Of a stretch of 40,616 bases of DNA, positions 1 through 40,616 are shown in pieces; positions within the stretch are counted from its first letter, which is position 1; each line of letters starts with the position of its first letter. The notes beneath the pieces are model-generated. The model searched no databases and had not been told where the DNA came from. It saw only the letters and a list, made by a program, of their open reading frames with translations. Both the position numbers and the translations under genes were made by a program. The DNA is from Escherichia phage EC.W1-9. Location of the stretch: sequence record PP445227.1; one strand, given 5' to 3'.

Positions 1-164
1 GACTTAAACGCTACTACACCGGAAAAACATGTAAGCACGGACATGACAGTGAACGCTGGGTTTACAACGGACACTGTGTTGAGTGCACCATGGAATCAAA
101 CCGTCGTATCAGGGCAGAGATTAAGCAGATCATGATTAATTCCTCCCCACAACATTCAAGCTGA
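1..164 (+). CDS. 3' end of a small zinc-ribbon-like protein (5'-truncated at window edge)
   Basis: Open frame with codons starting at nt 3 (…YTGKTCKHGHDSERWVYNGHCVEC…), stop TGA 162-164; CxxH…CxxC spacing; followed by SD-like AGCGGAG and the ATG at 180. Confidence 0.4.
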   Translation, partial: LKRYYTGKTCKHGHDSERWVYNGHCVECTMESNRRIRAEIKQIMINSSPQHSS

Positions 165-179
165 TAGCGGAGATTAATC

Positions 180-995
180 ATGAGCAGACATGCAACAGAT
201 TGGGCCTGGGAGACAGATCCAGGTAGCTCATCATTAAAGCTCATACTGCTCTCGATGGCTGACAGAGCCGATGAATATAACCTCTGCTACCCCAGCATAG
301 AACGCCTCGTTAAAGACACTTGCCTGAATAAAAAAACCGTGCAGGCCGGGCTTATATCGCTCATGAAAATGGGGCTTATTTCAGATACCGGAGAGAGAAA
401 GGGAGCGACAAAAAGAGTGCGGGTTTTCTCTCTTAATATAACCAAAAACGGGAACATTAAAGGCAACCGGGAGGGGGGCAATGAACCCGAAAACGGTAAT
501 GTTACCGAAAACGGGAATATACCCAAAAACGGGATGTTGAATGATCCCAAAAACGGGATGTTGAATGATCCCAAAAACGGGATCCAGAACCAGTCATATA
601 ACCAGTCATTTAACCAAGAGAGGGAGAGCAGGACAAAAAGCGGGGATTCTGTGCCTCATGACCCCGGAGCAAACAACGCCGTGATGAATAACTTTGTTCC
701 TCCTGGTGGGCCAGGGCAATTAGGCAAATTTGTCATGCATGAACAATGGCAGCCATCAGATGACTTTCTTCGGAAAAGCTCATTGCAGGGGATCTACCTG
801 GACAGTCTGCCAACGGCACAGGAACTTGCAGAGTTCAGAATTTACTGGATGGCTGAGGGTAAGGCATACCATCAGGCACAGTGGGAGCAGAAGCTGGCAA
901 GGCGGCTGCAGATTAGCAGACAGAAGCAATCAACATTACCTGATAACAACGTTCCGCACTGGAACAGCCCTGAAGCATGGGAGGATTTCTTGTGA
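180..995 (+). CDS. Replication initiation protein, lambda O-like (N-terminal winged-helix DNA-binding domain, internal iteron-encoded repeats)
   Basis: 271-aa ORF; N-terminus LKLILLSMADRADEYNLCYPSIERL typical of phage replication initiators; middle encodes PKNGMLNDPKNG repeats from DNA iterons; lies directly upstream of a P-like gene. Confidence 0.75.
   Translation: MSRHATDWAWETDPGSSSLKLILLSMADRADEYNLCYPSIERLVKDTCLNKKTVQAGLISLMKMGLISDTGERKGATKRVRVFSLNITKNGNIKGNREGGNEPENGNVTENGNIPKNGMLNDPKNGMLNDPKNGIQNQSYNQSFNQERESRTKSGDSVPHDPGANNAVMNNFVPPGGPGQLGKFVMHEQWQPSDDFLRKSSLQGIYLDSLPTAQELAEFRIYWMAEGKAYHQAQWEQKLARRLQISRQKQSTLPDNNVPHWNSPEAWEDFL
441..615. repeat. Iteron array (candidate replication origin) inside the O-like gene
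   Basis: At least six direct repeats of core AAAACGG(G/T)A at 444, 489, 507, 525, 549, 573 (two exact 24-bp copies CCCAAAAACGGGATGTTGAATGAT), followed by duplicated ACCAGTCAT(A/T)TAAC. Confidence 0.65.
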
Positions 996-1777
996 ACAAC
1001 GTTTTTACCGCGATACAAAACCGTGACGGAGAAGCCCTTTCTCGCATGTCAGGTTATGAGCATCAGTACGTCAACAATGACAATGTGGTGAACATGTCAG
1101 CAGAGAGGCTTGTTGATGCCCTTTTTAAACAGCTGAAACAACTGTTTCCGGCGGCAGTGGTAACCAACCTGAAGACGCCAGAGCAGGAAGTTGCTGCAAA
1201 ACAGCAGTGGATTGCTGCGTTTGCCGAAGGGGGGATCCGAACCCGTGAACAGGTTTCTGCTGGTATGCGCCACGCCCGCGCCAGTGAATCTCCGTTCTGG
1301 CCGTCTCCAGGGCAATTTATCAAGTGGTGCAAAGACAGCAAGATGGTTCTTGGCGTCACCATTGACGATGTGATGGCGGAGTTTCACCGGTACAGCAAGG
1401 AAAAAAGTTTATATCCTGGTGGTCCCGAAAGATTCCCGTGGCGACATCCGGTTATGTACTGGGTCGTATGTGATACCCGCCGTGCAATGTATCAGCGCCA
1501 GCTTAGCGAGATTGAGGTTGAGAAACACGCACGCAGGCTGCTCGATGATTGGGCGAAAAAGGTGGCTTCCGGACAGCAGATACCCGATCCGGTGATCAGC
1601 ATACAGGCAAAGCCAGAGCCCATGAGTACGCCTCCGGACACAGGGAGAGACGTTTACCATCCACCAGGGCGAAGTTTCGGGTGCATGCCTAACGCCGCCA
1701 CCCTTGGGGGAATAACACCGGCGCAGTGGCTGATGGAGGAATACAGGCGGGGAAAGGCGGCAGGATTTATCAAGTAA
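992..1777 (+). CDS. P: Replication protein P-like (DnaB helicase loader)
   Basis: Segment GGIRTREQVSAGMRHARASESPFWPSPGQFIKWCKD closely parallels lambda P (NGITTMEQVNAGMRVARRQNRPFLPSPGQFVAWCRE); GTG at 992 overlaps the O stop (GTGA) with GGAGG 7 nt upstream. The track's ATG at 977 is an alternative start. Confidence 0.8.
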   Translation: MNNVFTAIQNRDGEALSRMSGYEHQYVNNDNVVNMSAERLVDALFKQLKQLFPAAVVTNLKTPEQEVAAKQQWIAAFAEGGIRTREQVSAGMRHARASESPFWPSPGQFIKWCKDSKMVLGVTIDDVMAEFHRYSKEKSLYPGGPERFPWRHPVMYWVVCDTRRAMYQRQLSEIEVEKHARRLLDDWAKKVASGQQIPDPVISIQAKPEPMSTPPDTGRDVYHPPGRSFGCMPNAATLGGITPAQWLMEEYRRGKAAGFIK

Positions 1778-1814
1778 TACCAGCGCGATAGCGCATTTTT
1801 TTACGTCTATATGA

Positions 1815-1829
1815 TTACCTGGAAGGTAA
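1815..1829. promoter_or_regulatory. Palindromic site TTACC-N5-GGTAA (ATTACCtggaaGGTAAT)
   Basis: Perfect inverted repeat in the P/DUF1064 intergenic region. Confidence 0.5.
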
Positions 1830-1876
1830 TAAAATGTTCTAATCTCTATTGATTTCATGTCTTATGTGGTTTTTAA

Positions 1877-1891
1877 TTACCTAAGGGGTAA
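1877..1891. promoter_or_regulatory. Palindromic site TTACC-N5-GGTAA
   Basis: TTACCtaaggGGTAA overlapping the SD region of the gene starting at 1895. Confidence 0.5.
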
Positions 1892-1894
1892 ATC

Positions 1895-2242
1895 ATGAGA
1901 AAACAGATACAGGCTCTTGGTCGACTCAAAACAGGCCAGATGAACAAAACAGAATCTGCGTATTGCCAGCACCTTGAGCTGCGTAAACGTGCAGGGGAAA
2001 TCGCCTGGTATCGATTCGAGGGTATCAAGCTGCGGTTAGCTAATAACACGTTCTATACGCCCGATTTCGCTGTGATGCTCGCCACCGGCGAGATGGAGCT
2101 GCACGAAGTGAAAGGGGGATTCTGGACCGATGACGCCAGAGTGAAAACCAAAGTCGCCGCAGATCAGTATCCGTTCCGAATCATCGGGGTAACGGTTAAA
2201 CCAAAGAAAGCAGGTGGTGGCTGGAACATCGAAGAGTTCTGA
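1895..2242 (+). CDS. DUF1064-family phage protein
   Basis: 115-aa ORF with good SD (AAGGGG); sequence style of the DUF1064 proteins that follow replication genes in lambdoid phages (recalled, not searched). Confidence 0.6.
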   Translation: MRKQIQALGRLKTGQMNKTESAYCQHLELRKRAGEIAWYRFEGIKLRLANNTFYTPDFAVMLATGEMELHEVKGGFWTDDARVKTKVAADQYPFRIIGVTVKPKKAGGGWNIEEF

Positions 2243-2303
2243 ATCGACGATCTATTTAGTTATCAATGTAATCAATAAGTTATGTGGATAAGCGAGGGTA
2301 AAG

Positions 2304-2783
2304 ATGGAAAGTAATATCAAAGGGTTAGTTGCCGCCGGGCATGAGATGGCTTCGGAACTGAAAGCAGAATGTGGTGCCGTTGATATGCGCAGTGTGGCAA
2401 AGCTGATCAGCGATTTGGCAACGCAACTGGAAGTGCAACTGGTGCGTGCTAATGCGCTGGCGGCGGAGAGTGCGGCAATGCATGAAACTATTGAAGCCGT
2501 TCGGAGTGTTGCGGATAACTCCAGTGGAATTGCCGGATGGCATTTGAATGGCGATATCGCTACATGGGAAGAGATTCTTCCTGAAATTAACGATATCGAA
2601 ACTCCAGCCACCGATGCTTTCCTGGCTGAAGTACGTGCGCAGGCGTTTAATGACCTTTGCTCGGCGTTCGTTAAACACGCGAATCTCGCGGGAATGGATG
2701 ATGGTGAGCTAGTGAGGCTTAAATATGCGACGGACGCCCTGCTGCATTGTGCGGAACAGCTTCGCAAAGGAGGCAACCAGTGA
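2304..2783 (+). CDS. Hypothetical protein (nin-region-like)
   Basis: 159-aa ORF, SD GAGGG upstream, same strand as the operon. Confidence 0.55.
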   Translation: MESNIKGLVAAGHEMASELKAECGAVDMRSVAKLISDLATQLEVQLVRANALAAESAAMHETIEAVRSVADNSSGIAGWHLNGDIATWEEILPEINDIETPATDAFLAEVRAQAFNDLCSAFVKHANLAGMDDGELVRLKYATDALLHCAEQLRKGGNQ

Positions 2784-3325
2784 GTGTAACGGTTGAAAAG
2801 ATTGATGTGTTGTCATTCGTTATAACCGGTGCAGAGAGACTAGATCCGGTTCGAGTGATGATTGAAAACTATGAACCTGGAAAGGGAAGAATCACCATCA
2901 CCTGCTACGGAAAAGCGTGGACTGCGGCTTGGTTTGCTATGGGCGGTGATGATGTGCAGACGTTCATTAAGCGAGTCAGCAACGACTATCTAATCGACAA
3001 TTTCGACCCTCAACTGCGAAGCACGGTCGACGATGACAACGATGCAAATCTGCTTTTCGTGAAGTCAGAAATCATAAAGTTACGAAGAGAGAGAGAAATC
3101 GACGCCGTACTGGCTCGCGAAATGTGGTACGAGGCGGAAAACGCCGATGACGTAAAAGAAAGCTGCTGCTGTTTCGGCGTCGGTAACAAACTACTGAATC
3201 TCTTTGGTGATGAGCCGTGGTATGCCAACTGGCCAACGATACCAAACCCGAAATACCAGTATCTGGAACGCGTACTTAATGCAGTGAGAGACGGTCTTAA
3301 GCAAATAGAGAAGGTGGAACCATGA
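2780..3325 (+). CDS. Hypothetical protein
   Basis: GTG at 2780 preceded by AAGGAGG and overlapping the upstream stop; the track ORF begins earlier at 2747. Confidence 0.5.
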   Translation: MSVTVEKIDVLSFVITGAERLDPVRVMIENYEPGKGRITITCYGKAWTAAWFAMGGDDVQTFIKRVSNDYLIDNFDPQLRSTVDDDNDANLLFVKSEIIKLRREREIDAVLAREMWYEAENADDVKESCCCFGVGNKLLNLFGDEPWYANWPTIPNPKYQYLERVLNAVRDGLKQIEKVEP

Positions 3326-3621
3326 CTGTATGTCTTATTGATAAACGTCGACGTGGGCAACAAATACCATCTGTTGAAATGCCGAATCACACATGGTTTT
3401 GCGTACTTGATATCGATGGCATGGATAAGTTTGTTGACACTCGTCATTACTGCGATACCGCAACAGCTACTCCGGCGAAAGCAAAGAAAATGGCTGCTCT
3501 GATAGAAAACTGGACTCCACCTGATGGTTGGTGCAATGGGAATGATCGGGATTGGCATGAAAAAATGAAGGGCTATATCTGCGATTTTTTACGTAAATGC
3601 AACGGATTCAGGGTGATGTGA
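3322..3621 (+). CDS. Hypothetical protein
   Basis: ATG overlaps upstream stop (translational coupling), SD AAGGTGG. Confidence 0.5.
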   Translation: MTVCLIDKRRRGQQIPSVEMPNHTWFCVLDIDGMDKFVDTRHYCDTATATPAKAKKMAALIENWTPPDGWCNGNDRDWHEKMKGYICDFLRKCNGFRVM

Positions 3622-3622
3622 C

Positions 3623-4387
3623 ATGAGCAAGATTGACTATCAGGCACTGCGTGCCAAGGCAGAAAAAGCAACGTGTGGTGTATGGTCGCTCGAATATGGA
3701 GAGAGCCGATTTGATGGTGATGATGCGCTAATTCATCGTGAAGTTGCTGGATATATTCCTATTTGCAGAATTGAAGGAGCGCATCCAGAAAGCGGTTTCG
3801 ATGAAGATTTCCAAATGGAACAGCAGGCCAATGCTGAATTCATCGCCGCAGCCAGTCCATCTACCGTGCTGGCACTGCTGGATGAACGGGAAAGAAACCA
3901 GCAATACATCAAACACCGTGACCAGGAGAACGAGGATATTGCGCTAACGGTAGGGAAGCTGCGTGTTGAGCTTGAGGAAGCAAAATCAAAACTCAACGAG
4001 CAACGCGAGTATTACGAAGGTGTTATCTCGGATGGAAGTAAGCGTATTGCTGAACTGGAGAAAAGCGAAGAGCAACTCATTAACGAGCGTGACCATGCTG
4101 AGTCTGCTTTAGCTGATATGTATTTTGCAGCAACCGGGGATAGGCCTGAGTGGAGTAACTGGTTCGGTTTTTCAGATGCAGTAGATGCCGTAGTTGACAG
4201 AATTGCTGATTTAGAAGCTAAACAGCCATCGCCAGTAGTACCTGAAGGACTGATTAAAGCGGTGCGTTTTTATGAGCAGGTAAAACGTGAGAACCCGCCA
4301 GTCGAAACCGGAGCATGGAAAGACGCTGTTGACTGGGTGCTCAAAGAGGCTTGCCAGGCTGTAAACATTGGCATCAAAGGAGAGTGA
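3623..4387 (+). CDS. Ead/Ea22-like protein
   Basis: 254 aa, acidic coiled-coil centre, sequence style of lambdoid Ead/Ea22 family proteins (recalled). Confidence 0.55.
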   Translation: MSKIDYQALRAKAEKATCGVWSLEYGESRFDGDDALIHREVAGYIPICRIEGAHPESGFDEDFQMEQQANAEFIAAASPSTVLALLDERERNQQYIKHRDQENEDIALTVGKLRVELEEAKSKLNEQREYYEGVISDGSKRIAELEKSEEQLINERDHAESALADMYFAATGDRPEWSNWFGFSDAVDAVVDRIADLEAKQPSPVVPEGLIKAVRFYEQVKRENPPVETGAWKDAVDWVLKEACQAVNIGIKGE

Positions 4388-4388
4388 T

Positions 4389-4904
4389 ATGGCGTTAACA
4401 CACCGCGAACTCTGTCAGATTGCGTACAAGTTCCTTAAGCGCAACGGGTTCAAGGTTTGTTTTCATGACCGCTTTATAGCTGTAACCAGTACCGGAGAAC
4501 AGCCAGATGCTATGGGATTCAGAAATTCAGCATCATGCCTGATAGAGGCGAAGTGTTCTCGTGCTGACTTGTTGGCAGATAGAAAAAAGCGTTTTCGTAA
4601 AAATCCGTCTCTTGGAATGGGCGACTGGCGATTCTTTATTAGTGAGCCAGGAATTATTTCAATTGAGGATTTACCACCTGGCTGGGGATTACTTCACGTT
4701 GTTAACGGAAGAGTACGGAAAGTACATGGGTGGCCCAAGGGTAATTGCTGTTGGGGTAATCCTGACGATAAGCCATTTACTGGAAATAAGCAGGTTGAAT
4801 GCGATTACATGTTATCTGCATTAAGGCGCATGGAGTTGAGAGGGCACCTTAATGAAATATATGACGGTGTAATTGTTAATAAGAAAGAAGGAAACGCAGC
4901 ATGA
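4389..4904 (+). CDS. Putative PD-(D/E)xK-type nuclease
   Basis: ATG at 4389 after AAGGAGAG; motif QPDAMGF…CLIEAK fits the D…E-x-K catalytic spacing. Confidence 0.45.
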   Translation: MALTHRELCQIAYKFLKRNGFKVCFHDRFIAVTSTGEQPDAMGFRNSASCLIEAKCSRADLLADRKKRFRKNPSLGMGDWRFFISEPGIISIEDLPPGWGLLHVVNGRVRKVHGWPKGNCCWGNPDDKPFTGNKQVECDYMLSALRRMELRGHLNEIYDGVIVNKKEGNAA

Positions 4905-5830
4905 TCACTATTACCAAAGAACGCCTGCTGACAATCCAGCAGTGGCGCGAAACATACGGACCTGGTAGCAACGTTGTACTGCCAGCAGAAGAAGCGGAAG
5001 AACTGGCACGAATTGCTCTGGCATCGCTGGAGCAGAATGCACTATCTGGCAACTCTCGGCTTATTCCTGGTGAAGTGTTGTCCGCAATCCGGGAGGTTGC
5101 CAAGATTCGTGCCGATTTCGATGATTTTGACGGTGACAGGCGAGGTATCGGTGATTGTCTGGATGAGGCCGAGCAAGAGCTTATCGTTACCATTAACAAA
5201 TATGCCAGTCAGTTGGCAGCAGAACCGATAGCGACTAATGACGTTCGAGAGCAGCAGACAGCCGTTCCGCCAGTTCCGGAAATACAGGATGATGTCGCGC
5301 AAGCAATTGAAAATCTCAAGCAGAAGTTAGTGGAATGCAATCGCTATAACTACTGCGCAGATGCAGTTAAAGGCGTAGAGGATGCCTGCCACGCTGCCAT
5401 GCTTCATAGTGCCGAACCTGCAAGTAATCATGAAGAGTTGCCGCTTGATTATCTCCAAGGTCAAAAAGATGGTCTTGAATGGGCTGCGCAGCTTGCAGAA
5501 GCAAATCACCCACAAACTGGCGACTGGCTTTACGATGACCCGCTGGAGGTGGCTAAAGCTATCAGAAAAGGTCCTGACATGCCCGAATTCGATGGACCAA
5601 CTCCGGCAACTCCGGATGGTTGGATAAGCTGTAGTGAGCGAATGCCGAACGATAAACAGTATGTTTGGTGTTGGGGTAAGTCTTACGGCTGGACTGAGTG
5701 CGATACCTTCGAAGGGTATTACGATTGGTCGAGAAACAAATGGTGGGCAGTTACTGACGATGGGGAAGAACCGGCATCGAAAGTAACCCACTGGATGCCG
5801 CTACCAGAACCGCCGCAGGAGGTGAAGTGA
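4901..5830 (+). CDS. DUF551-domain phage protein
   Basis: 309 aa; C-terminal DGWISCSERMP…THWMPLPEPP resembles the DUF551 signature (recalled). Confidence 0.55.
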   Translation: MITITKERLLTIQQWRETYGPGSNVVLPAEEAEELARIALASLEQNALSGNSRLIPGEVLSAIREVAKIRADFDDFDGDRRGIGDCLDEAEQELIVTINKYASQLAAEPIATNDVREQQTAVPPVPEIQDDVAQAIENLKQKLVECNRYNYCADAVKGVEDACHAAMLHSAEPASNHEELPLDYLQGQKDGLEWAAQLAEANHPQTGDWLYDDPLEVAKAIRKGPDMPEFDGPTPATPDGWISCSERMPNDKQYVWCWGKSYGWTECDTFEGYYDWSRNKWWAVTDDGEEPASKVTHWMPLPEPPQEVK

Positions 5831-5952
5831 TGAACAAGTGCAACGCTCTGCTTTATGCCATGGTGATTGGTTTCGGCCTGGTTGCTGGTATCCGGGTTTA
5901 TATTACCTGGGAGTCATTAATCAATCTGGCGTGGAGTGCGATTCGTGGCTAA
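5830..5952 (+). CDS. Small hydrophobic protein (40 aa), not in the ORF track
   Basis: ATG overlaps upstream stop (TGATG), GGAGGTGA SD; translation MNKCNALLYAMVIGFGLVAGIRVYITWESLINLAWSAIRG has one predicted TM helix. Confidence 0.45.
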   Translation: MNKCNALLYAMVIGFGLVAGIRVYITWESLINLAWSAIRG

Positions 5953-6247
5953 ATCCCCCGCAGAACGCAAAGCCGCGCAGCGCGCTCGGCAGTCCGCCGC
6001 CGGTGAGCGCAAAATTGAACTGGTGCTGGATAAGCAGGAGCAGGAAATGCTGGCGCGGAACTGCGCCGCCCGGCGCCCTGGTCGCGATCCCTATGAAATG
6101 GCCGAGTACATCGCGCTGCTGATCCGCCAGGATGATGCACGTGTGCGCGGGCGTATAAAATCGATCAGCAGAAACTTTGCGGTAAGTGCGGCGAGAGAGT
6201 TCCCGTTAATTCATGCCCGTGTAATGGTGACTCGCAATGCTGGGTGA
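5936..6247 (+). CDS. Hypothetical basic protein in a locally GC-rich segment
   Basis: 103-aa ORF from GTG; Arg/Ala-rich; start uncertain and overlaps the small ORF. Confidence 0.35.
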   Translation: MRFVAKSPAERKAAQRARQSAAGERKIELVLDKQEQEMLARNCAARRPGRDPYEMAEYIALLIRQDDARVRGRIKSISRNFAVSAAREFPLIHARVMVTRNAG

Positions 6248-6331
6248 CTAAAGGCTGGCATGAAACGAAATTAATAGTGTGACATGTCACGAGTAGATTA
6301 TGCATGATGAATTTGATGGGTTTTGAATACT

Positions 6332-11735: not shown

Positions 11736-12028
11736 CAGATTACGAAGACGATCAACTGAAAGAAGAAAACGCCCGTAAGCAACGTGACATGGCACAGCGT
11801 GAAATTGATGACATTCGCTTTGTCATGAGCAGTGAACAGGGGCGTCGCGTTGTCTGGTCTGTGCTGGAGAAAGGCCGGGTGTTTTCCGCTATCTCACCGA
11901 TGGACGCTATGGCAATGGCATTTAATGAGGGGCAACGCAATCTGGCGCTGGAACTGTTTCAGCGCGTTATGGCGCATTGCCCTGAACAGTATTTGAAGAT
12001 GGCCAAAGAGGCCAGTGAACAGGAGTGA
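11732..12028 (+). CDS. Hypothetical head-module protein
   Basis: 98 aa; ATGA overlap with the portal stop. Confidence 0.55.
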   Translation: MTDYEDDQLKEENARKQRDMAQREIDDIRFVMSSEQGRRVVWSVLEKGRVFSAISPMDAMAMAFNEGQRNLALELFQRVMAHCPEQYLKMAKEASEQE

Positions 12029-12030
12029 TC

Positions 12031-12726: not shown

Positions 12727-12740
12727 GAGAGGAGATAACA

Positions 12741-13727: not shown

Positions 13728-13743
13728 CGCCTGTTATTAACCT

Positions 13744-31333: not shown

Positions 31334-31587
31334 TTAGAGATGTTAGCAATAACAATATATCGTCATTCAGAATTGATGGTTCATATAGAGTTGTTGGTGG
31401 AAGTGTTGGTCTTAGTTTTGCTGATGCTTATTCGAAACTCGGGGTGGATGCAAACTCTATAACAGTGTCAAACAATAACAGCACTTCTGACAATATCAGC
31501 ATAGCAATTAAAAACACAGATTCATCAAAAACCCTTCAGGTTACTGTTATGCCTGAGGTTTCAAGCAGGTTAGGTATTGAGGAATAG
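31234..31587 (+). pseudogene. Alternative-frame continuation of the tailspike C-terminus
   Basis: Frame with codons at 31234… is open to TAG 31585-31587 and encodes beta-rich …GSTGIVSLQIPSGASLVFRGVSIWV…ISSFRIDGSYRVVGGSVGLSFADAYSKLGVDANSITVSNNNSTSDNISIAIKNTDSSKTLQVTVMPEVSSRLGIEE; the two frames meet at CCCCCC 31249-31254. Confidence 0.5.
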
Positions 31588-31663
31588 CATCATATATAAT
31601 TATTTTAATGTTAATGCCGTCTTCTTGTTGGCGGCTTATTTGTGAAAATGGAATGAGTTATTT

Positions 31664-32185: not shown

Positions 32186-32590
32186 ATGTCAGCTCAACTA
32201 ACCAGTGAAACTTTAAATCAGTGGCTTAGCATGAGTTCTCTGGCGGCGGTGATAGCAGGAGTTCCTCCTGAGGTTGCTTTGGGGGCTTTGGCTGGGGCGG
32301 TAATTTTTGTTACCTCTGCGGTAGAGTATCCTATTCGTCGTCGTGTACTCTTGTCGATGCTTAGCTTTCTCTGCGGCCTTCTTTTTTATAAACCAGCAGC
32401 ATCAATTCTTATCGGCATAGCCAGCCTGATCCCTACCATCACGCAGGACTCTTTTGAAAAAGGGATTGTTTTCTCAGCTGGCGCATTCGTGTCAGCAATT
32501 GTTGCTGTGCGTATTGGTATATGGCTCTATCACCGTTCCGATAATCCACGCGAGTTAATTCCGGGGAGAAAAGACGATGGTAACGCATGA
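32186..32590 (+). CDS. Holin-like membrane protein
   Basis: Three hydrophobic helices, charged C-terminus, first gene of the lysis cassette; ATG at 32186 after GGTGGA. Confidence 0.55.
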   Translation: MSAQLTSETLNQWLSMSSLAAVIAGVPPEVALGALAGAVIFVTSAVEYPIRRRVLLSMLSFLCGLLFYKPAASILIGIASLIPTITQDSFEKGIVFSAGAFVSAIVAVRIGIWLYHRSDNPRELIPGRKDDGNA

Positions 32591-32885
32591 GTTTTTTTTG
32601 CTTATCACCAATGCAGTTATTTGTACTGGCATAGCAATTCGCGTTGTCACATTCCGGCGTAACGGCTCTCAACATCGAAGATGGGGAGGGTGGCTTGCTT
32701 ATTTCCTTATTGTTGCTGCGGCCAGTATTCCTGTTCGTGTCGTCTATGCAATCTGGTTACGCACGCCAATGGCTGTGGATTTATCTGAGGTCATTATCAA
32801 CGCTGTCATGCTTGCCGCGGTTATTAAAACACGCGGTAACGTTGTTCAGATTTTCAAAATATCGAGGTCTAAACATGGAGATTAA
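32577..32885 (+). CDS. Holin/antiholin-like membrane protein
   Basis: 102 aa, three hydrophobic segments, GGGGAGAA SD, overlaps both neighbours. Confidence 0.55.
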
Positions 32886-33504
32886 ACAATTCCAGCGAGC
32901 TGCTGGTATTAGCGAGTCGCTGGCCGCACGCTGGTTCTCGCATATAACTTCTGCGATGAAAGAGTTTGGTATCAGCAAAGCAGAAGATCAGGCAATGTTT
33001 ATTGCTCAGGTCGGGCATGAGTCTGGGGGCTTCACCCGGTTGCAGGAGAATTTCAACTACAGCGTCAGCGGACTGGCTAACTTTGTTCGGGCTGGGCGTC
33101 TCACTCAGGGACAGGCCAACGCATTGGGGCGACGCGCAGGCGAACCACCATTGCCACTTGAGCGCCAGAGAGCGATTGCCAATCTGGTGTACAGCAAACG
33201 CATGGGGAACAATGCCCCCGGCGATGGCTGGAATTACCGTGGCCGCGGACTTATCCAGATTACCGGTTTGAATAACTATCGTGATTGCGGAAACGGCCTG
33301 AAAGTGGACCTGCTGGAGAATCCTGAACTGTTGGCGCAGGACGAATACGCGGCTCGTAGCGCGGCGTGGTTCTTCTCCAGCAAAGGTTGCATGAAGTATA
33401 CCGGCGATATTGCACGTGTAACTCTGATTATCAATGGTGGCAGGAATGGCATCGACGACCGGCGCGCGCGGTACGTCACTGCCAGTAAGGTGCTGGCTGT
33501 ATGA
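32875..33504 (+). CDS. Endolysin, glycoside hydrolase family 19-like
   Basis: [10 protein letters not shown]…[12 protein letters not shown] pattern typical of GH19 phage endolysins; ATG at 32875 chosen over the upstream track start. Confidence 0.7.
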
Positions 33505-33983
33505 TCTGGTCATTCGTAAAAGCATACCGTAAACAGTTGATTATCATGGCGGTGCTTGCTGTTCTGGTCATATCAGGAGTTGTTGCCTGGAATGTGCACG
33601 GCAGTCGTCAGTACGACGCTGGGTATGCACAGGCGAAAGAAGACCGCAAAACAGAAGATGAGAGAGTTCGTCAGCACTACGAACAGGAGAAATCGATCAA
33701 TGAACGTGAAGCGCAGCAGAGGATCGACCAGGCGCGCAATGATGCTCTTGATGCTGCCGCTCGCGCTGGCCGGTTGCAGCAACAGCTCGTTGCCATCCGT
33801 GAGCAGCTCAGGCACTATAACGCCATTGTCGGCGCTGGGTCGTCAGCCGCAGACACCGGAGTTTTGCTTGCCGACGTGTTCAGCAAATCTCTCGAGAGAA
33901 ATAGACAACTGGCAGAGTATGCTGACCGGGCAGCCGAAGCCGGAAGAGTCTGCGAAAAACAGTACGACACCCTGACCAGATAG
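33501..33983 (+). CDS. i-spanin (Rz-like)
   Basis: N-terminal TM helix then Gln/Arg/Glu-rich coiled coil; ATGA overlap with the endolysin stop. Confidence 0.7.
33739..33975 (+). CDS. o-spanin (Rz1-like lipoprotein) embedded in the +1 frame of the i-spanin gene
   Basis: [17 protein letters not shown]… lipobox LAGC, Pro-rich mature part, wholly nested in the Rz-like gene. Confidence 0.65.
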   Translation: MMLLMLPLALAGCSNSSLPSVSSSGTITPLSALGRQPQTPEFCLPTCSANLSREIDNWQSMLTGQPKPEESAKNSTTP

Positions 33984-34155
33984 CATGGCATTTTTCATGG
34001 TACTGATTTCCGGTGACGGTATATAAAACGGTACGAGAAAAATTCATATTTGGAAAAATGTTATCACTCAATTGGTTATGGTATCCGTAAATAATTGAGT
34101 GGGAATGATTAACAGCTAACTCATAGCAAATCATTCCTATTCAGATGCCAACTCA

Positions 34156-34300: not shown

Positions 34301-35551
34301 GTGCTTACCGATACAAAATTAAAAAACCTCAAGCCGCAGGACAAACTGTACAAGGTCTCCGATCGTGACGGGCTGTATGTAGCTGTGCTTACGTCAGGCA
34401 CGGTCTCATTTCGTTATGACTACCGTATCAACGGTCGCCGCGAAACACTGGTAATCGGGCAGTATGGGCGTGACGGTATCAGCCTGGCAGAAGCGCGGGA
34501 AGAACTGATTGCTGCAAAGAAGCTGCTTAAAGCAGGCCAGTCACCGGCTGCGGCTAAACGTGACGGTATCAAAAAGATTCGTGGTGCCGAAACGTTTGCG
34601 GTACATACCGACAGTTATATGAAACACGTCATCCTGGCTGAAAGTACCCGCGCAATGAAGCAGGCAGTGATCGACCGTGACATACTTCCGGTTCTTGGCA
34701 ACAAAATGATGGCTGAAATTACCACATCGATGGTTCGTGATTTGTGTGACCGGATTGTCGAACGCGGTGGCCGGGCAACAGCAGTGCAGGCCAGGGAGAT
34801 CATCAGCAGCGTATACCGTCACGCCAATGACCGTGGTCATGGTTTGTTTAATCCTGCGGCTGACATTAAGCCTTCGTCTATCGCCATATTTAAACCACGA
34901 GAGCGAACACTGACACCAGAAGAAATTGGCCTGTTCTTCCGCACGTTGGATGCCATTGGTGCTATGGGCACTATGAAAATGGCTTTAAAACTGGTGCTTA
35001 TCACTATGGTTCGTAAGGGCGAATTCACCAATGCAACGTGGGATGAAATAGATTTTAAAAAATGGACATGGACAATTCCTTCAGACCGCATGAAGGGAAG
35101 CCGGGCGCATGTTATTTACCTGCCTAAACAGGCTCAGGATATATTGGTCGGGTTGCAGATGTGCGCTGGTGGAAGTGAATATCTGGTTCCTGGTCGTTAC
35201 AATTTCCGGAAGCCATTATCTAATGCCGCGCTGAACTCTCTGATCGACAGAACGGTGAAAATAATAAATGAAGATGGTGAGCATATTCAGGATTTCACCG
35301 TACACGATATGCGCCGTACAGCCAGTACGTTGTTGCATGAGGCTGGTTATCCTTCAGACTGGATTGAAAAGGCTCTGGCACATGAGCAGAAAGGTGTGCG
35401 CGCCGTATATAACAAAGCGGAATACGCCAGACAGCGCGCCTACATGTTGCAGCAGTGGGCCGATATGATAGATTCCTGGATTAACGGGGAGCATACGGAT
35501 CTGATTCCGTTCTCCCCGTCGAAGTTTGAGAAGTGGATGGCGAGGGAATAA
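34301..35551 (+). CDS. int: Tyrosine integrase
   Basis: N-terminus (M)LTDTKLKNLKP…DGLYVAV typical of the DUF4102-type integrase arm domain; C-terminal catalytic region with HDMRRT and AHEQ…VRAVYNKAEY (Tyr) signatures. Confidence 0.85.
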   Translation: MLTDTKLKNLKPQDKLYKVSDRDGLYVAVLTSGTVSFRYDYRINGRRETLVIGQYGRDGISLAEAREELIAAKKLLKAGQSPAAAKRDGIKKIRGAETFAVHTDSYMKHVILAESTRAMKQAVIDRDILPVLGNKMMAEITTSMVRDLCDRIVERGGRATAVQAREIISSVYRHANDRGHGLFNPAADIKPSSIAIFKPRERTLTPEEIGLFFRTLDAIGAMGTMKMALKLVLITMVRKGEFTNATWDEIDFKKWTWTIPSDRMKGSRAHVIYLPKQAQDILVGLQMCAGGSEYLVPGRYNFRKPLSNAALNSLIDRTVKIINEDGEHIQDFTVHDMRRTASTLLHEAGYPSDWIEKALAHEQKGVRAVYNKAEYARQRAYMLQQWADMIDSWINGEHTDLIPFSPSKFEKWMARE

Positions 35552-35554: not shown

Positions 35555-35749
35555 TTAATTATTCTGCTGATTTTCTTCCATCTCGGCTTCTGCTGCCAGT
35601 GATTCAATTTTATCTGTGAATATTGCTGACAGTGTTGCAAATTCAGCATCAGTGACAGCGGGAATTGGAACAAACCTGATCCCGCTGTGTGCAAGCATGT
35701 TTGCAGTTTCAAGGCATTTCCTTAAATCTGCTGGTGATGCCCTGTTCAT
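35555..35749 (-). CDS. Small hypothetical protein, last gene of the leftward operon
   Basis: ATGA overlap with the methyltransferase stop; 64 aa. Confidence 0.45.
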   Translation of the reverse strand: MNRASPADLRKCLETANMLAHSGIRFVPIPAVTDAEFATLSAIFTDKIESLAAEAEMEENQQNN

Positions 35750-36396
35750 GCTGCACGCTCCCGCCCCTGGTTGTCTGTTGGTGACAGCGGAGCATTGCTG
35801 AATGCATTTGTTAATCTGGCAATATCCAACGCGTATCCAGGGTGTAGTTGCACTGCCGGGTCTTCGCACTGATTACCCCAAACATCGAAACCATGAGACG
35901 ACTGGCGGGCGAACAGTTCAATGCGAGAAACATCGCCTAACAATTGCACAAGTTTTTCACGAACGATATCTGGTTTTCTTGAATGCTCAAGCCGCGGTGC
36001 GGTAAATGACTGAACGATCCCTGCATTAATGCGCGTAGGTAGTTTTCCCTTTACTGCAAACAGGCAATCTTCACTATTGGCGCGAGTCATGTGACCCATA
36101 CCCATAACCAGTTTATCTGGTTGTCGACTACCACATTTTATCCACGTGAATCCCTTCATGGTCATCAGACGGAATCCCCAGGCCTCAACAACTTTTAGTG
36201 CTTCGAGTGGTTGTGTTGGCACCCACCACATGGCCAACAGACAGTTTTCATCGGCCAAATCCCACACAGGAAGGCGGCAGATATCCAGCACACTCATAAC
36301 CGGATATTTAAAACCGGCACCGCGATTACCATCTGCGGCTTTGTCCCGGTATACCCAGGGTGGATCTGCATAGATTAGTGTGTATTTCTTAGTCAT
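35746..36396 (-). CDS. MT-A70-family DNA N6-adenine methyltransferase
   Basis: Catalytic DPPW motif (LIYADPPWVY); ATG at 36396 after GGGGTGG. Confidence 0.75.
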   Translation of the reverse strand: MTKKYTLIYADPPWVYRDKAADGNRGAGFKYPVMSVLDICRLPVWDLADENCLLAMWWVPTQPLEALKVVEAWGFRLMTMKGFTWIKCGSRQPDKLVMGMGHMTRANSEDCLFAVKGKLPTRINAGIVQSFTAPRLEHSRKPDIVREKLVQLLGDVSRIELFARQSSHGFDVWGNQCEDPAVQLHPGYALDIARLTNAFSNAPLSPTDNQGRERAA

Positions 36397-36640
36397 AAAC
36401 CACCCCACAACATCCTATGCCGCTATAGTCGCCACGGCGAAGGCCGTTACCTTTTGTGATACATTGGTCCCTGCGAACCGCGATCCTTGCACGCTCAACA
36501 TCACCAGAAGCAACATCCATACACTGAAGCCAAAGGTGAGCGGCAATGCGGAACTGCCCTTTTTTCTCTCTTTCAATCGCGCGTTTTTCGATCTCTATCG
36601 CCGCAGGAGTAACGGCGACAATCTTTGACGGACTGCGCAT
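36389..36640 (-). CDS. Hypothetical small protein
   Basis: Start taken at the ATG at 36640 (AAGGT upstream); overlaps the methyltransferase start by 8 nt. Confidence 0.4.
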   Translation of the reverse strand: MRSPSKIVAVTPAAIEIEKRAIEREKKGQFRIAAHLWLQCMDVASGDVERARIAVRRDQCITKGNGLRRGDYSGIGCCGVVYD

Positions 36641-36797
36641 TGAAACCTTGTTCATGTGATATTTTTCAAGTCGGCTTAACTTTCTCACTTAATCCAACCC
36701 TCTCTGAAAATTAATGCCAGCAGATAAAGCCATGCTGAAACAGAGGCCAGGAATAAGTACCATCCTGACCATTTGCTCCAGTGCCTTAGCAGCACAC

Positions 36798-37046
36798 TCA
36801 TGCCGCGTTGCTCACGGGACGATATACACGTTGCTGAACAGGAGGTTTTTTACCCTGGAACTCTGCCGGGCTTGCTGCCTGACGTTCATCAAGCCAACGC
36901 TCAACTTCATCACGGTTCCATGCGCAGCGTTTATCGGTGATATACCAGCGTTTAGGAAATTCCCCTGCGCGCTCCATACGGTCGATAGTGCTCCATGACA
37001 GTGGAACCACCGCCAGGAGTTCCTTCTTACCTAATGCACCTTTCAT
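36798..37046 (-). CDS. AlpA/Xis-like small DNA-binding protein
   Basis: KKELLAVVPLSWSTIDRMERAGEFPKRWYI matches the AlpA-type HTH pattern; GAGAGG SD. Confidence 0.65.
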   Translation of the reverse strand: MKGALGKKELLAVVPLSWSTIDRMERAGEFPKRWYITDKRCAWNRDEVERWLDERQAASPAEFQGKKPPVQQRVYRPVSNAA

Positions 37047-37095
37047 AAATACCTCTCTTGGTTGCAGTGCGGCGCGCGTGGCGCCGCGGTGGTGG

Positions 37096-38037
37096 TTACA
37101 TAGATGTTTCGTTTAATTCTTCCCGACGAACGCTGTAAACGTCGGTGGCTTTTGCCAGCAGTTCGTCATCATCTGAAAGTTTTTGTGCAATGTATTTGTA
37201 AGCCTTATCCAGTTCGGAGACAGTGCTGTAATTCATCGCTGCGCTGGTAAAGGCCATCAGCATTTCTTCTGGATCACGGCTGTCCGATTTACGCGTTTGC
37301 TCATCAGGCTTTTTCGCTGGTTTAGCGTTGATCAGACTGTTCATTCCCGCAGCAGTGGTCGTTTGCGGAGTAATGTCTCGCTCAACGCGCGGTGCCGTTT
37401 CCTGTAATTCGTCTGGGGTGTAGACGCCCATGATTACGTCAGGACAGTGCAGGCGAGACCAGCGTTTTGTCGCAAGGTATGCGAGTTGTTGTTTCGGATC
37501 ACTGGCCCAAAGTGTGGAGTTTCTTACCTGTGCTTGAGACAGCATTAACTCAAGCACTCGAGGTTGATCCTCGCCCTTCATGGTTGCCCATACGCGAACA
37601 CCGCAGCCTTCTTCGTCTTTTAGAGTCCAGCCTGGTGCGATATATGGATTGCCGTTTTTGGATGTTTTCTCAACAAACTTACCGATCACGCGTTCCCACG
37701 GCCCGAACCACTCGTAGTTGATGCGATCTTTTGTTGGCGACATCGTTGAGATAACTGCGTTTACTAATTGGGCTTCATAACCTAGCGTGCCGTTCACAAC
37801 ATGGGTTTTCTGAGCCACGGCAAACGGGTTCATTCCCCACTGCGCAGCCTGCATTGCCACGGCCATGCAATCAGCTGGTTTCCCGGCGAGGTGCGCCGGT
37901 ACCGTTACGCGGCTTTGCGCCATTACCTCGGCGAATTTCATCAGTTGGTTCAAGCCGTCTGGGCTGAAAATAGTTGCAGCAGTTCCAGCGATTGCTGTGT
38001 CTACTGGTGCGTTGATGTTTGCGATGTCGTTGCTCAT
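37096..38037 (-). CDS. recT: RecT-family single-strand annealing protein
   Basis: RecT-like length and sequence pattern; ATG at 38037 overlaps the upstream exonuclease stop (ATGA). Confidence 0.7.
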   Translation of the reverse strand: MSNDIANINAPVDTAIAGTAATIFSPDGLNQLMKFAEVMAQSRVTVPAHLAGKPADCMAVAMQAAQWGMNPFAVAQKTHVVNGTLGYEAQLVNAVISTMSPTKDRINYEWFGPWERVIGKFVEKTSKNGNPYIAPGWTLKDEEGCGVRVWATMKGEDQPRVLELMLSQAQVRNSTLWASDPKQQLAYLATKRWSRLHCPDVIMGVYTPDELQETAPRVERDITPQTTTAAGMNSLINAKPAKKPDEQTRKSDSRDPEEMLMAFTSAAMNYSTVSELDKAYKYIAQKLSDDDELLAKATDVYSVRREELNETSM

Positions 38038-38855
38038 ATGTACATATCCTGTTTGCGTGCCCACTCAGGGCGTTTAATGATTTCCACACCGCCCCATTCA
38101 TCATTGATGCGGCATTCGTGATAGGTATTCAGATCCCGGCGGAACAGAGCGTGCCCGGCATCGACATCCTGCGCATCCAGCTCGAACACGCGTACCGGAT
38201 ACCGACCACAATCAATGCTTTCGCTCACGGCAAGAAAGAAAAAACCATGCGGCTGACCAGTAACCCTCATTGCGCCTTCGCGGTACATTGCGTCCTGCAC
38301 GTGGTAGCGGAATTCCTCGATGTGGCGTGCAAAACGGTCCATATCTGCAACCTTTTTCACGTCGACGATCACGTTGTGCTCGTTCAGCCATTTGTCTGGA
38401 CGAATTCGGCACAACTCCCCCGTCTCTTCATCGTTCCAGTACATTGATGCTTCGCAGTAACCAGGTGCTTCCAGCATCCAGCGTGCCGCCGGGTGAGCCA
38501 TTGCGCTATCACGCATCAGCTCCAGTTTCCGCCACTGCTCGGCATCAAGTACCGTAATCCCCATATCCGCCACATCACGAAGAAATTCCTCTTCGTCAGC
38601 TTTACCTTGTTTCGTCCGACGATCGAATTTCGGTGAAACAATGAAGCGTTTGTCGAACTCTCCAGGCTCCAGAAGCAGACAGTGCAATGCGGTTCCCATA
38701 TCCAGTGCAGACTTTTTCTCTTCGTCTTCTGGTGCTGCCTGAACCCATTTAAGAAGCGCCGGATTCTTGGCAACCATGTCCAGTTGCGACTTACTCACGC
38801 CGTCACCGGCGTGGTAGTCTTCGTTGCTGATGTCGAAATAAATTCCCGGTTTCAT
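38034..38855 (-). CDS. RecE-like 5'-3' exonuclease (PD-(D/E)xK, exonuclease VIII C-terminal domain type)
   Basis: N-terminus GIYFDISNEDYHAGDGVSKSQLD and later D…E-x-K motifs resemble the RecE nuclease domain; paired with RecT. Confidence 0.65.
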   Translation of the reverse strand: MKPGIYFDISNEDYHAGDGVSKSQLDMVAKNPALLKWVQAAPEDEEKKSALDMGTALHCLLLEPGEFDKRFIVSPKFDRRTKQGKADEEEFLRDVADMGITVLDAEQWRKLELMRDSAMAHPAARWMLEAPGYCEASMYWNDEETGELCRIRPDKWLNEHNVIVDVKKVADMDRFARHIEEFRYHVQDAMYREGAMRVTGQPHGFFFLAVSESIDCGRYPVRVFELDAQDVDAGHALFRRDLNTYHECRINDEWGGVEIIKRPEWARKQDMYI

Positions 38856-39151
38856 GCCGCGTCCCTCTGTCCATCAAGCTGATCCGCCAGATCCCAGCGG
38901 GCGATAATTGCCATTGCCTCTCGCCGATAGGCATCCATCAGTTCTTCGAACTCAGGGCTGTCTTTAGCAGCCTCCAGTACTTCCTGGCGAACGCCTTTAA
39001 CTGTTACAACGTCGAAAGTTGATGCCAGTTGATGAAGCCGGATACTCTCAATCAGTTCAACTTGTCGGTCATATAGCTGTTCTGACAGACGGTAGTCCTT
39101 GTCGAATGCCAGCATGATTTTTTGAAGATTTTTCTGCTGATTAACGTTCAT
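38852..39151 (-). CDS. Hypothetical protein
   Basis: ATG at 39151 preceded by GGGAGGG; overlaps the RecE start (ATGA). Confidence 0.5.
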   Translation of the reverse strand: MNVNQQKNLQKIMLAFDKDYRLSEQLYDRQVELIESIRLHQLASTFDVVTVKGVRQEVLEAAKDSPEFEELMDAYRREAMAIIARWDLADQLDGQRDAA

Positions 39152-39153
39152 TA

Positions 39154-39306
39154 TCAGCCCTCCCATATCTCGTTATCGTTGGCCACATCGCGAGCTTCTT
39201 TGCTGACGAAAGCCCACTTAATGCCTTCCTGTAAGGTGCGGAACTTCCAGCTCATGAATCCGCATGCAGTAACGCAGTACCAACCGTTGATGATTTTCCA
39301 CTGCAT
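39154..39306 (-). CDS. Small Cys/Trp-rich protein (50 aa), first gene of the leftward operon; not in the ORF track
   Basis: Translation MQWKIINGWYCVTACGFMSWKFRTLQEGIKWAFVSKEARDVANDNEIWEG; SD GAGGTAA upstream; stop 2 nt before the next gene's SD-ATG. Confidence 0.45.
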   Translation of the reverse strand: MQWKIINGWYCVTACGFMSWKFRTLQEGIKWAFVSKEARDVANDNEIWEG

Positions 39307-39459: not shown

Positions 39460-40044
39460 TTATTGTTTGTTTTTTTCGTTCTGGTTGATGACAAATTCAA
39501 TGTAACTTTCGATCTTTGCTTTCTCGGTTTCGGGTAACAATGCGTAGCGCGAGCGATCATAGTTGATGGTCGCAGGGTCGTGCGGGTGAATCAGTAATTC
39601 ATAGCCGTGACGCCCGAATGCGGATGCAACATTCTCCAGGGTGGAAATGGAAACGCTGACCTCATTGTTTAACAGGCGGCTGATTGTCACCTGGGCTACG
39701 CCGGATGCGCGGTGAAGTTTTCCCTGTGTTGAAAGGTCGCGGCTTTCGCTCATCCAGCGTTCCAGGTTGTGAGCCGCCAGCTGGCCAATGTCGCTTGGGC
39801 CGACAGGCTGAAAACCTTCCTGAGAAAGCGAGCGATCGATATCAAGCCAGTTACGGGGTTTATTGGCGGCAGCTTCAATTTTTCGCGCAACCTGATCGCC
39901 GATAACCTTCTTACCAAGAGCCCAGCGGTTTACCAGATTTGCCTGAGTTCCAAGTTTTTCAGCCATCCGCGTCTGAACACCATTGAATTCACGGTCGATC
40001 AAGTCGTTGAGATTTTGCCTGCGGACGTCCTGGATACTTTTCAT
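39460..40044 (-). CDS. Repressor-like DNA-binding protein with two HTH-like segments
   Basis: 194 aa; segments LGTQANLVNRWALGKKVIGDQVARKIE and SGVAQVTISRLLNNEVSVSISTLENVASAFG look like XRE-type HTH units; divergent from a Cro-like gene across a triple-site region; no S24 peptidase motif noticed. Confidence 0.5.
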   Translation of the reverse strand: MKSIQDVRRQNLNDLIDREFNGVQTRMAEKLGTQANLVNRWALGKKVIGDQVARKIEAAANKPRNWLDIDRSLSQEGFQPVGPSDIGQLAAHNLERWMSESRDLSTQGKLHRASGVAQVTISRLLNNEVSVSISTLENVASAFGRHGYELLIHPHDPATINYDRSRYALLPETEKAKIESYIEFVINQNEKNKQ

Positions 40045-40113: not shown

Positions 40114-40115
40114 AA

Positions 40116-40130
40116 TGCACCTCATGGGTA
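40116..40130. promoter_or_regulatory. Operator-like site 2 (GCACCtcatgGGTAA, imperfect)
   Basis: Centre 17 bp from site 1. Confidence 0.35.
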
Positions 40131-40146
40131 ACTATCCTTGATTTTT

Positions 40147-40161
40147 GTTACCTTATGGGTG
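40147..40161. promoter_or_regulatory. Operator-like site 3 (TTACCttatgGGTGA, imperfect)
   Basis: Centre 31 bp from site 2; triplet arrangement. Confidence 0.45.
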
Positions 40162-40198
40162 AATATTTATTATCTGAAATAAATATCAGGCAATAGCT

Positions 40199-40429
40199 AT
40201 GAGCGATAACGGACATTTCGATTTCAAAAAGCACTGGCTTGCACTTACTCCGGATGAGCGTGAAGCCTTCGCACAGGAAGCCGGAACGACGAGTCACTAT
40301 ATCCAGACTCACTTAACAGGTAAGCGCAAAATGCCAGGTAAAGTATTGATGAATGGGCTTTTTAAAGCCTGTAAAACAAGACAATGGCTGCGCTCAAAAG
40401 CAGAACTGGCATACTTCTTCTACTCATGA
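40199..40429 (+). CDS. Cro-like small DNA-binding protein
   Basis: 76 aa, transcribed divergently from the repressor-like gene, followed by a terminator; possible HTH in FAQEAGTTSHYIQTHLTGKR. Confidence 0.45.
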   Translation: MSDNGHFDFKKHWLALTPDEREAFAQEAGTTSHYIQTHLTGKRKMPGKVLMNGLFKACKTRQWLRSKAELAYFFYS

Positions 40430-40461
40430 TATCCAGCTACAACCCTCTGTAGACCGCCACC

Positions 40462-40483
40462 CGGCGGTCTTTTCATATCTATT
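40462..40483 (+). terminator. Rho-independent terminator downstream of the Cro-like gene
   Basis: GACCGCC-accc-GGCGGTC followed by TTTT. Confidence 0.6.
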
Positions 40484-40484
40484 C

Positions 40485-40499
40485 GTACCTCAAAGGTAA
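40485..40499. promoter_or_regulatory. Palindromic site gTACC-N5-GGTAAT (imperfect)
   Basis: Directly after the terminator; AACCAAATATGGTT follows. Confidence 0.4.
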
Positions 40500-40579
40500 T
40501 AAAAAACCAAATATGGTTGATATTTTTTTTGTGTCAGCACAAAATGACCGTAATCCCAATACTAATAACAGGGCTTACC

Positions 40580-40616
40580 ATGGAAATCATTACACGTATT
40601 GATGCCGCAAAGCGCG
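40580..40616 (+). CDS. 5' end of a gene truncated by the window edge (MEIITRIDAAKR…)
   Basis: ATG at 40580; the frame runs off the window and is in phase with the partial ORF at nt 1-164 if the sequence is circular. Confidence 0.4.
   Translation, partial: MEIITRIDAAKR

Follow-up and report, generated by a model that had tools for sequence, protein, structure and literature searches.

The 40,616-nucleotide sequence of Escherichia phage EC.W1-9 (record PP445227.1; hereafter the window, meaning the whole stretch analyzed) begins and ends inside open reading frames, which raises the question of whether it is an entire phage genome with joining ends or a segment of a chromosome. In the frame started by the ATG at 40580, the last codon has only its first base, 40616, at the window end; its other two bases are 1-2, and the frame stops at TGA 162-164, giving an uninterrupted 66-codon ORF once 40616 is joined to 1. 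The product is MEIITRIDAAKRGLKRYYTGKTCKHGHDSERWVYNGHCVECTMESNRRIRAEIKQIMINSSPQHSS, of 66 aa and not 65 aa as originally predicted. The gene is divided as follows:

40580..40616, plus strand: 5' part of the split 66-aa gene (12 codons plus 1 base; full-length phrog_1081 match)
1..164, plus strand: 3' part of the split 66-aa gene (stop codon 162-164; Cys/His motif C23-x3-H27 ... C38-x2-C41)

The original prediction held that the last ORF continues in phase into the first, with the reservation that a one-in-three chance match cannot be excluded. Judged on the window alone, the figure of about 1 in 3 is sound (at the start of the window two frames out of three stay open for more than 40 codons, and at its end a single frame is open), but the reservation no longer applies. 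The joined protein covers 1-66 of the 67 positions of the phrog_1081 profile (E = 1.8e-42), the gene is annotated as a single 201-bp CDS (WP_000402896.1) in the ST648 and IR53017 prophages and is likewise undivided in the annotation of hundreds of E. coli prophages, and the 66-codon ORF is intact in 119 of the 120 IMG/VR loci having the junction 42-mer; these results confirm the continuation and remove chance as its explanation. Furthermore, an artificial 3-kb junction running from the window end into its start matched at least 20 E. coli chromosomes as one BLAST piece, with all 3,000 bases identical, was covered to at least 80% in 420 of 5,426 genomes, and was contiguous at 98.0-98.8% in the isolated phages phiV10, PAS61, phiv142-3, and PH444. 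No direct overlap of the window ends was found at lengths of 5-399 bases. The 66-aa protein matched no family in Pfam or NCBIfam, and the structure model of a 53-residue part (encoded by 3-161), a beta-hairpin followed by a helix, was of low confidence (pLDDT 62); the zinc-ribbon-like character proposed for the protein is therefore plausible only.

The window also contains a phage attachment site:

34094..34110, plus strand: attP core ATTGAGTGGGAATGATT, 17 bp (from BLAST segment overlap, attP/attL/attR alignment, and the published core)

The core is identical in sequence to the 3'-terminal codons of the host's guaA (IEWE-stop) and is present once in the window, with phage DNA on both sides; when attP is aligned with attL and attR, identity ends exactly at the core edges. 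The integrase begins 190 bp downstream, and both the 17-bp core and the 190-bp spacing to int have been published for phiV10, epsilon15, and ZX5 (PMC9782041). The window core is attP, neither attL nor attR. The Rz-attP-int stretch is unbroken in virion-derived genomes, and in 567 of 572 E. coli records the att region is broken at the core or close to it. Rotated to the att core, the window is identical at 40,616/40,616 bases to the guaA-yfgI prophage of E. coli IR53017, and it differs from the ST648 prophage at five positions. No host DNA or host genes were found within the 40,616 bp, and the 40.6-kb length falls within the 38.4-41.8 kb span of isolated relatives. Free forms are also on record for this phage group, as 41,027-bp circular entries deposited as plasmids and as attP-form metagenome contigs of 36.9-39.2 kb. 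A search of metagenomes with the window's exact 48-base attP junction gave no match (a 32-base version matched seven stretches), and nothing in the plasmid collection came closer to the window than 92%. The sequence ends are thus contiguous in independent genomes, and the window is exactly one unit, in attP form. Junction contiguity, identity to the IR53017 unit, and attP with phage arms uphold the prediction of a complete phage genome with joining ends, as opposed to a chromosomal segment; "circularly permuted" is borne out only for the sequence as written, which is rotated.

Uetakevirus members share roughly 70% identity over the whole genome as the genus criterion. The window shows 96-97% identity in the aligned parts, which cover only 46-59% of each half-window query. 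The partition or maintenance genes of phage-plasmids such as P1 or N15 (parAB, repA, telomerase) are absent from the PGAP annotation of the identical prophage, which has an integrase and attP instead. We conclude, with a probability of roughly 0.9, that the window represents one complete unit of a temperate E. coli Uetakevirus (phiV10/epsilon15-like podophage) that integrates at guaA, and that this unit has the configuration of the excised phage or the virion. Read as a circle from attP, its gene map is:

34301..35551, plus strand: tyrosine integrase (Pfam Arm-DNA-bind_3, Phage_int_M, Phage_integrase)
35555..39306, minus strand: leftward early operon, with DUF1382, MT-A70 methyltransferase, PerC-like, small HTH (AlpA-like), RecT, PD-(D/E)XK nuclease, and two small ORFs (PGAP annotation of the identical prophage mapped onto the window)
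39460..40044, minus strand: repressor (HTH_3 domain; identical to the ZX5/phiV10 repressor family)
40199..40429, plus strand: cro-like regulator (phrog_35 transcriptional repressor)
40451-40470, after the cro-like gene: terminator-like hairpin (terminator scan)
180..995, plus strand: replication initiator (HTH_36 plus DnaT domain)
992..1777, plus strand: lambda P-type helicase loader (Pfam Phage_lambda_P, E = 1.5e-56)
1895..6282, plus strand: nin-like region of small genes (DUF7739, Ea22-like, DUF551 fragment, and others)
6323-6997, plus strand: terminase small subunit, TerS (Pfam Terminase_2)
6994-8463, plus strand: terminase large subunit, TerL (phrog_2)
10056..14562, plus strand: head genes (portal, protease, epsilon15 GP7-type major capsid protein, Bbp16-family cement protein, one small ORF)
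14619..25723, plus strand: tail and internal virion (ejection) protein genes, including a T7 gp14-family core protein and a DUF919 protein
29459..31588, plus strand: tailspike gene (ORF as written ends at 31333)
32186..33983, plus strand: lysis cassette (two holin-like genes, GH19 endolysin, DUF2514 Rz-like spanin)

The major capsid protein matches Pfam GP7 (PF20911, E = 1.5e-148), and the portal is a podophage head-to-tail connector (Pfam Head-tail_con, PF12236, E = 7.5e-187). The early region is of the lambda type, with divergent HTH_3 repressor and phrog_35 cro-like genes, a DnaT/HTH_36 initiator with iterons, Phage_lambda_P, and a nin-like region. The iteron-like repeats lie at about 444-583 inside the initiator gene (four exact motif matches against 0.19 expected) and probably mark the origin. 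No lysis genes were found upstream of terS, where the lambda-type late order would place Q and lysis between nin and terminase. The lambdoid order that had been proposed for the window therefore holds for the early region (int, recombination, repressor, cro-like, O/P-like, nin-like) but not for the lysis cassette, which, as in epsilon15, follows the tailspike and precedes attP. Similarly, the expected modules are mostly all present, the exceptions being the deleted gp10 and the truncated tailspike ORF.

The capsid staple gene gp10 is cleanly absent after 14562 (324 bp), and tblastn of the window returned no match to it. It was present in every isolated member found (phiV10, PAS61, ZX5, Tyrion, epsilon15, SPN1S, and BPP-1), and about 1 in 8 related prophages lack it. 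We note that gp10 is a conserved feature of Uetakevirus, not a formal taxonomic criterion. The tailspike ORF is shortened because its poly-C run is one base shorter: the C6 tract at 31249-31254 gives an ORF of 624 aa, and C7 restores 709 aa. The absence of gp10 together with the tailspike frameshift weakens a virion origin of the window, and the lineage may be one without infectious virions. TerS belongs to Pfam Terminase_2, which is only suggestive of headful (pac) packaging, and TerL had no sequence match in PDB, Pfam, or NCBIfam and only the broad phrog_2 match; the accessible literature, including that on ZX5, Ab31, OVC8, PAS61, and ZX1, yielded no data on virion termini of epsilon15/phiV10-type phages. 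Virion DNA would presumably be terminally redundant through headful packaging.

We infer that the physical source was virion DNA or an excised or replicating circle, and that the sequenced molecule was circular. The attP configuration arises when integrase recombines the 17-bp cores of attL and attR, at the 3' end of guaA, so that the prophage leaves as a circle; virion DNA has this configuration too. An assembler or the depositor then probably circularized the sequence and wrote it from an arbitrary base in codon 13 of the 66-aa gene, which separates the cro-like gene from the replication initiator; opening of the circle inside this gene is why the last ORF is in phase with the first.

An unlikely variant of the free form is that a virion-defective lineage remains able to excise and is maintained, or replicates, in its host as a free circle of 40.6 kb, in a plasmid-like carrier state, the window then being an episome and not virion DNA. 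Such a state is hinted at by the 41-kb relatives deposited as circular "plasmids".

It is quite improbable that the window was cut, as a single unit, from a chromosomal tandem double lysogen (attL-phage-attP-phage-attR) and is not a free molecule, even though such tandems exist. Five complete E. coli chromosomes keep the attP region whole, each matching in three places; strain 97-3250 has the order portal...lysis-attP-int...terminase-portal again; and a 92.8-kb IMG/VR contig of more than two phage units has the window's exact 48-base attP junction. Tandems nevertheless account for about 1% of carriers (5/569 genomes), and a slice of exactly one unit (40,616) with perfectly meeting ends would be an extreme coincidence. 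We also give very little weight to a computational product with no free DNA behind it, that is, an integrated prophage circularized in silico or a collapsed repeat contig. Identity to the IR53017 prophage unit would fit such a product, and the missing gp10 and the tailspike frameshift are expected of a resident, possibly defective prophage; however, prophage predictors give attL-to-attR segments that open at att, usually with host flanks, whereas the window opens 6.5 kb from att inside a gene, and graph-based collapse of an integrated copy would probably break contigs at the att core. A chance phase match between unrelated partial ORFs at the two ends of an ordinary piece of chromosome, for which the 1-in-3 prior speaks, has a negligible probability given the full-length phrog_1081 membership, a junction contiguous in hundreds of genomes, and no host genes; we rejected it, together with the ordinary single-prophage reading, on these grounds and on the IR53017 identity and the split att region of the 567/572 records.

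The excised or virion-form Uetakevirus unit is the ordinary outcome of assembling a circular or circularizable phage genome, and its biology is already known; the junction itself yields no new biology, and the result serves mainly for housekeeping. The partial ORFs at the two ends belong to a single gene, and annotation should treat the record as circular, ideally re-opened at terS or attP. The element is pinned down as a Uetakevirus that integrates at guaA and is identical to a prophage often found in E. coli, both ST648-type and other; gp10 loss and the poly-C tailspike frameshift offer minor clues to how prophages decay or vary.

The closest known relative is the IR53017 guaA prophage (NZ_CP064103.1, ~1,492,592-1,533,207), which after rotation is identical to the window, with the same C6 tract and likewise without gp10; it is integrated, with attL and attR next to guaA and yfgI, whereas the window is the attP form without host DNA. 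Near-identical prophage copies occur in ST648, FDAARGOS_497, Ecol_881, and others. The type E. coli Uetakevirus, phiV10 (DQ126339 / NC_007804), shares the attP core, integrase, and overall gene order, with 98% identity in the immunity/replication region across the junction and 97% in the head genes; unlike the window, it has gp10, a different tailspike, and an O-antigen acetyltransferase. Similarity to phiV10 ends at 18640, beyond which lies another ejection-protein module, and its record opens just upstream of terS, whereas the window opens inside the 66-aa gene. The best overall nucleotide matches are phiv142-3, vB_EcoP_PAS61, and vB_EcoP_ZX5 (97% over 59% of the first 25 kb), but these have gp10, and their ejection, tailspike, and moron regions are unlike those of the window. 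Two 41,027-bp complete Uetakevirus genomes from duck E. coli, pHL15EC-2 and its twin (NZ_CP079771.1, NZ_CP079768.1), are recorded as circular "plasmids"; Rz-attP-int is contiguous in both, with ~88-92% identity to the window in the att region, but they carry gp10 and an acyltransferase/SGNH module. Salmonella phage epsilon15 (AY150271) has another host and other serotype-conversion genes, and its nucleotide identity to the window is only ~77-86% in the conserved parts, yet it shares the att core and the terminase-portal-GP7 capsid-tail-tailspike-lysis-attP-int-early architecture.

An open reading frame that runs in phase from the end of the window into its start, as the original prediction held, is confirmed by the frame itself, by a profile match and by its annotation elsewhere. 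An ATG opens the final 37 bases (40580-40616), one base is left after the last whole codon, the codon at the junction (base 40616 joined to base 1) is completed by bases 1-2, and the same frame then runs to the TGA at 162-164. The joined product is 66 aa (MEIITRIDAAKRGLKRYYTGKTCKHGHDSERWVYNGHCVECTMESNRRIRAEIKQIMINSSPQHSS), not the 65 aa first proposed. Of the three frames at the start of the window, two stay open for more than 40 codons, so the phase match is about a one-in-three event, as had been cautioned, and weak evidence from the window alone; comparison of the two ends found no direct overlap of 5-399 bases. The joined 66-codon ORF is a real gene: it matches phrog_1081 (PHROG) over residues 1-66 of the 67-position profile (E = 1.8e-42) and is annotated in E. 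coli prophages as a single 201-bp CDS (WP_000402896.1). It is intact in 119 of the 120 IMG/VR loci with the 42-base junction string, and the copy encoded by phiV10 is 98.5% identical. The protein has no family match in Pfam or NCBIfam; distant homologues occur in many Vibrio, Klebsiella, and Xanthomonas phages, and a few of these matches fall under genes annotated as HNH endonuclease or endonuclease VII. A low-confidence single-sequence model places a beta-hairpin, then a helix, in residues 14-66; the protein may plausibly carry a small metal-binding motif of Cys and His residues.

The junction is contiguous elsewhere. An artificial 3-kb query (the window's last 1,500 and first 1,500 bases) aligns unbroken, with 100% identity, to no fewer than 20 complete E. 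coli chromosomes, and at least 80% of it was covered in 420/5,426 genomes. It is also a single piece, at 98.0-98.8%, in phages that were isolated or deposited, among them phiV10, vB_EcoP_PAS61, and PH444; phiv142-3 covers it at 98.5%, but in two pieces.

The window aligns to the ST648 prophage, located between guaA and yfgI, as two blocks: 34094-40616 (the integrase-side part, 100%) and 1-34110 (the remainder, 99.985%). The blocks share a 17-base overlap, and this core (ATTGAGTGGGAATGATT), the final codons of guaA (IEWE-stop), is found at both ends of the prophage. Identity of the window to attL and attR ends exactly at the core edges, and its single core is flanked on both sides by phage DNA and is therefore attP. 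The integrase starts 190 bp downstream; core sequence and spacing are those of the published attP of phiV10, epsilon15, and ZX5, and attB, attL, and attR of ZX5 were verified by PCR and Sanger sequencing (PMC9782041). Rotated to the core start, the window equals the IR53017 prophage from the attL core up to, but not including, the attR core (40,616/40,616 bases). Separately, ST648 and the window differ by a 1-bp indel at 8563 and one substitution at 8863, within 8468-9400, and at 26608, in a region of reverse-strand small ORFs, where T8 in the window is T7 in ST648, a further homopolymer-length difference between otherwise identical prophages.

The window is the product expected if integrase recombines the attL core with the attR core, equivalently the virion genome order, closed into a circle and then opened arbitrarily within codon 13 of the 66-aa gene. 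The end-to-start ORF is a bookkeeping effect of putting a circular sequence into linear form. The contiguous junction, attP, and the identity to IR53017 support the original reading of a complete phage whose ends join, with minor corrections.

We used a 1-kb query spanning attP to tell the free from the integrated form. It is contiguous in virion-derived genomes (e.g., phiV10, ZX5, epsilon15, and SPN1S) and breaks at or near the core in 567 of the 572 E. coli records matching it; it is whole in five, each with three match places. Among carrier genomes of guaA-integrating Uetakeviruses (assembled chromosomes), 5/569 have an internal attP, and tandem double lysogens do exist there: E. coli 97-3250 (NZ_CP027599.1; positions 1-41001 of the extracted locus) reads from portal through lysis, attP, and int to terminase and portal again. 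Several head genes are frameshifted in its second copy. The main rival source, a slice of such a tandem lysogen, can draw on the five records with a whole attP region and on a 92.8-kb IMG/VR contig (IMGVR_UViG_651053022_000007) with the window's exact attP junction, but the slice must be exactly one genome length, to the base, and we consider it very unlikely.

We infer instead that the DNA sequenced came either from virions or from a circle, excised or replicating. Records of free circular forms exist for this group. Two 41,027-bp circular E. coli "plasmids" (NZ_CP079771.1, pHL15EC-2; NZ_CP079768.1) are complete Uetakevirus genomes in attP form, and they probably represent phage DNA, excised or replicating, that was assembled as its own replicon; attP-form metagenome contigs measure 36.9-39.2 kb, with attP near both ends in one of them. 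More tentatively, the Terminase_2 small subunit and the epsilon15 paper, which reportedly speaks of a "nonredundant genome", suggest headful packaging, by which virion DNA would be physically permuted and terminally redundant; TerL had no sequence match in the PDB, Pfam, or NCBIfam that would place it in a class.

Gene order, from the annotation of the identical IR53017 prophage mapped onto the window
1. 40580-164, across the junction: 66-aa gene
2. Initiator (DnaT/HTH_36), iteron-like repeats inside (444-583)
3. P-type loader
4. nin-like genes
5. terS, terL
6. 8468-9400, minus strand, between terL and portal: 201-aa gene (phrog_4780) and tRNA-Arg(TCT)
7. Portal, protease, capsid, cement proteins
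8. Tail and ejection proteins; ejection-protein module at 18640-25723 (915-aa, 1129-aa DUF919, and 283-aa proteins)
9. Reverse strand: DUF2335 and BRO-N antirepressor genes
10. 28043-28982, between antirepressor and tailspike: YafO-family toxin pair
11. 29459-31588: tailspike
12. Holins, endolysin, spanin
13. attP, integrase
14. Leftward early genes: MT-A70, PerC, HTH, RecT, nuclease
15. Repressor
16. cro-like gene, then terminator-like hairpin

The YafO-family type II toxin (28476-28982) and its overlapping upstream partner ORF are a probable moron or addiction module. The iteron-like repeats (region 444-616; AAAACGGGA-type motif, 18-bp and perfect 24-bp tandem units) are probably the replication origin, by analogy with lambda, whose ori likewise lies inside gene O. 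In the NCBI annotation of the identical prophage, several nin-region ORFs (4389-6282) are marked frameshifted or partial, and the 309-aa ORF at 4901-5830 seems to join an N-terminal fragment to a C-terminal one of DUF551.

The claim that all modules are present is not quite true: gp10 is missing and the tailspike ORF is cut short. A clean deletion between 14562 and 14619 has removed the 324-bp gene of the capsid staple protein, gp10; every isolated relative found keeps it, out to BPP-1 and BcepC6B, and the gp10-less form occurs in ~8 of 60 (~13%) evenly sampled related E. coli prophages, in several host lineages. The tailspike ORF stops at 31333 (624 aa) because its poly-C run (within 31241-31260) has six Cs; one added C gives a 709-aa tailspike. 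Among 37 complete E. coli genomes that carry the segment, 35 have C7, and C6 is shared only by IR53017 and CUVET19-970. The shorter run could be an error in sequencing the homopolymer or a real frameshift, inactivating or phase-variable.

The window is a temperate podophage of the phiV10/epsilon15 kind, assigned to the genus Uetakevirus, and public databases already contain the element itself, along with its att site, gene order, and even exact sequence. Pfam families include an epsilon15 GP7-type capsid protein, podophage connector, and Terminase_2 small subunit, and, among early genes, a lambda P-type helicase loader, DnaT/HTH_36 initiator, HTH_3 repressor, and arm-type tyrosine integrase. 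Over the aligned parts, nucleotide identity is 96-97% to phiv142-3, PAS61, O157 typing phages 9 and 10, TL-2011b, ZX5, and phiV10, and epsilon15 matches at 77%. Similarity to phiV10-type E. coli phages ends at 18640; unlike theirs, the ejection-protein module resembles that of Klebsiella phage ST512-KPC3phi13.3 (~81%), which indicates mosaic exchange of internal virion protein genes. The lambdoid order originally proposed stands for the early region, which resembles that of lambda, whereas the lysis cassette adjoins attP rather than lying upstream of the terminase genes, the same arrangement as in epsilon15.
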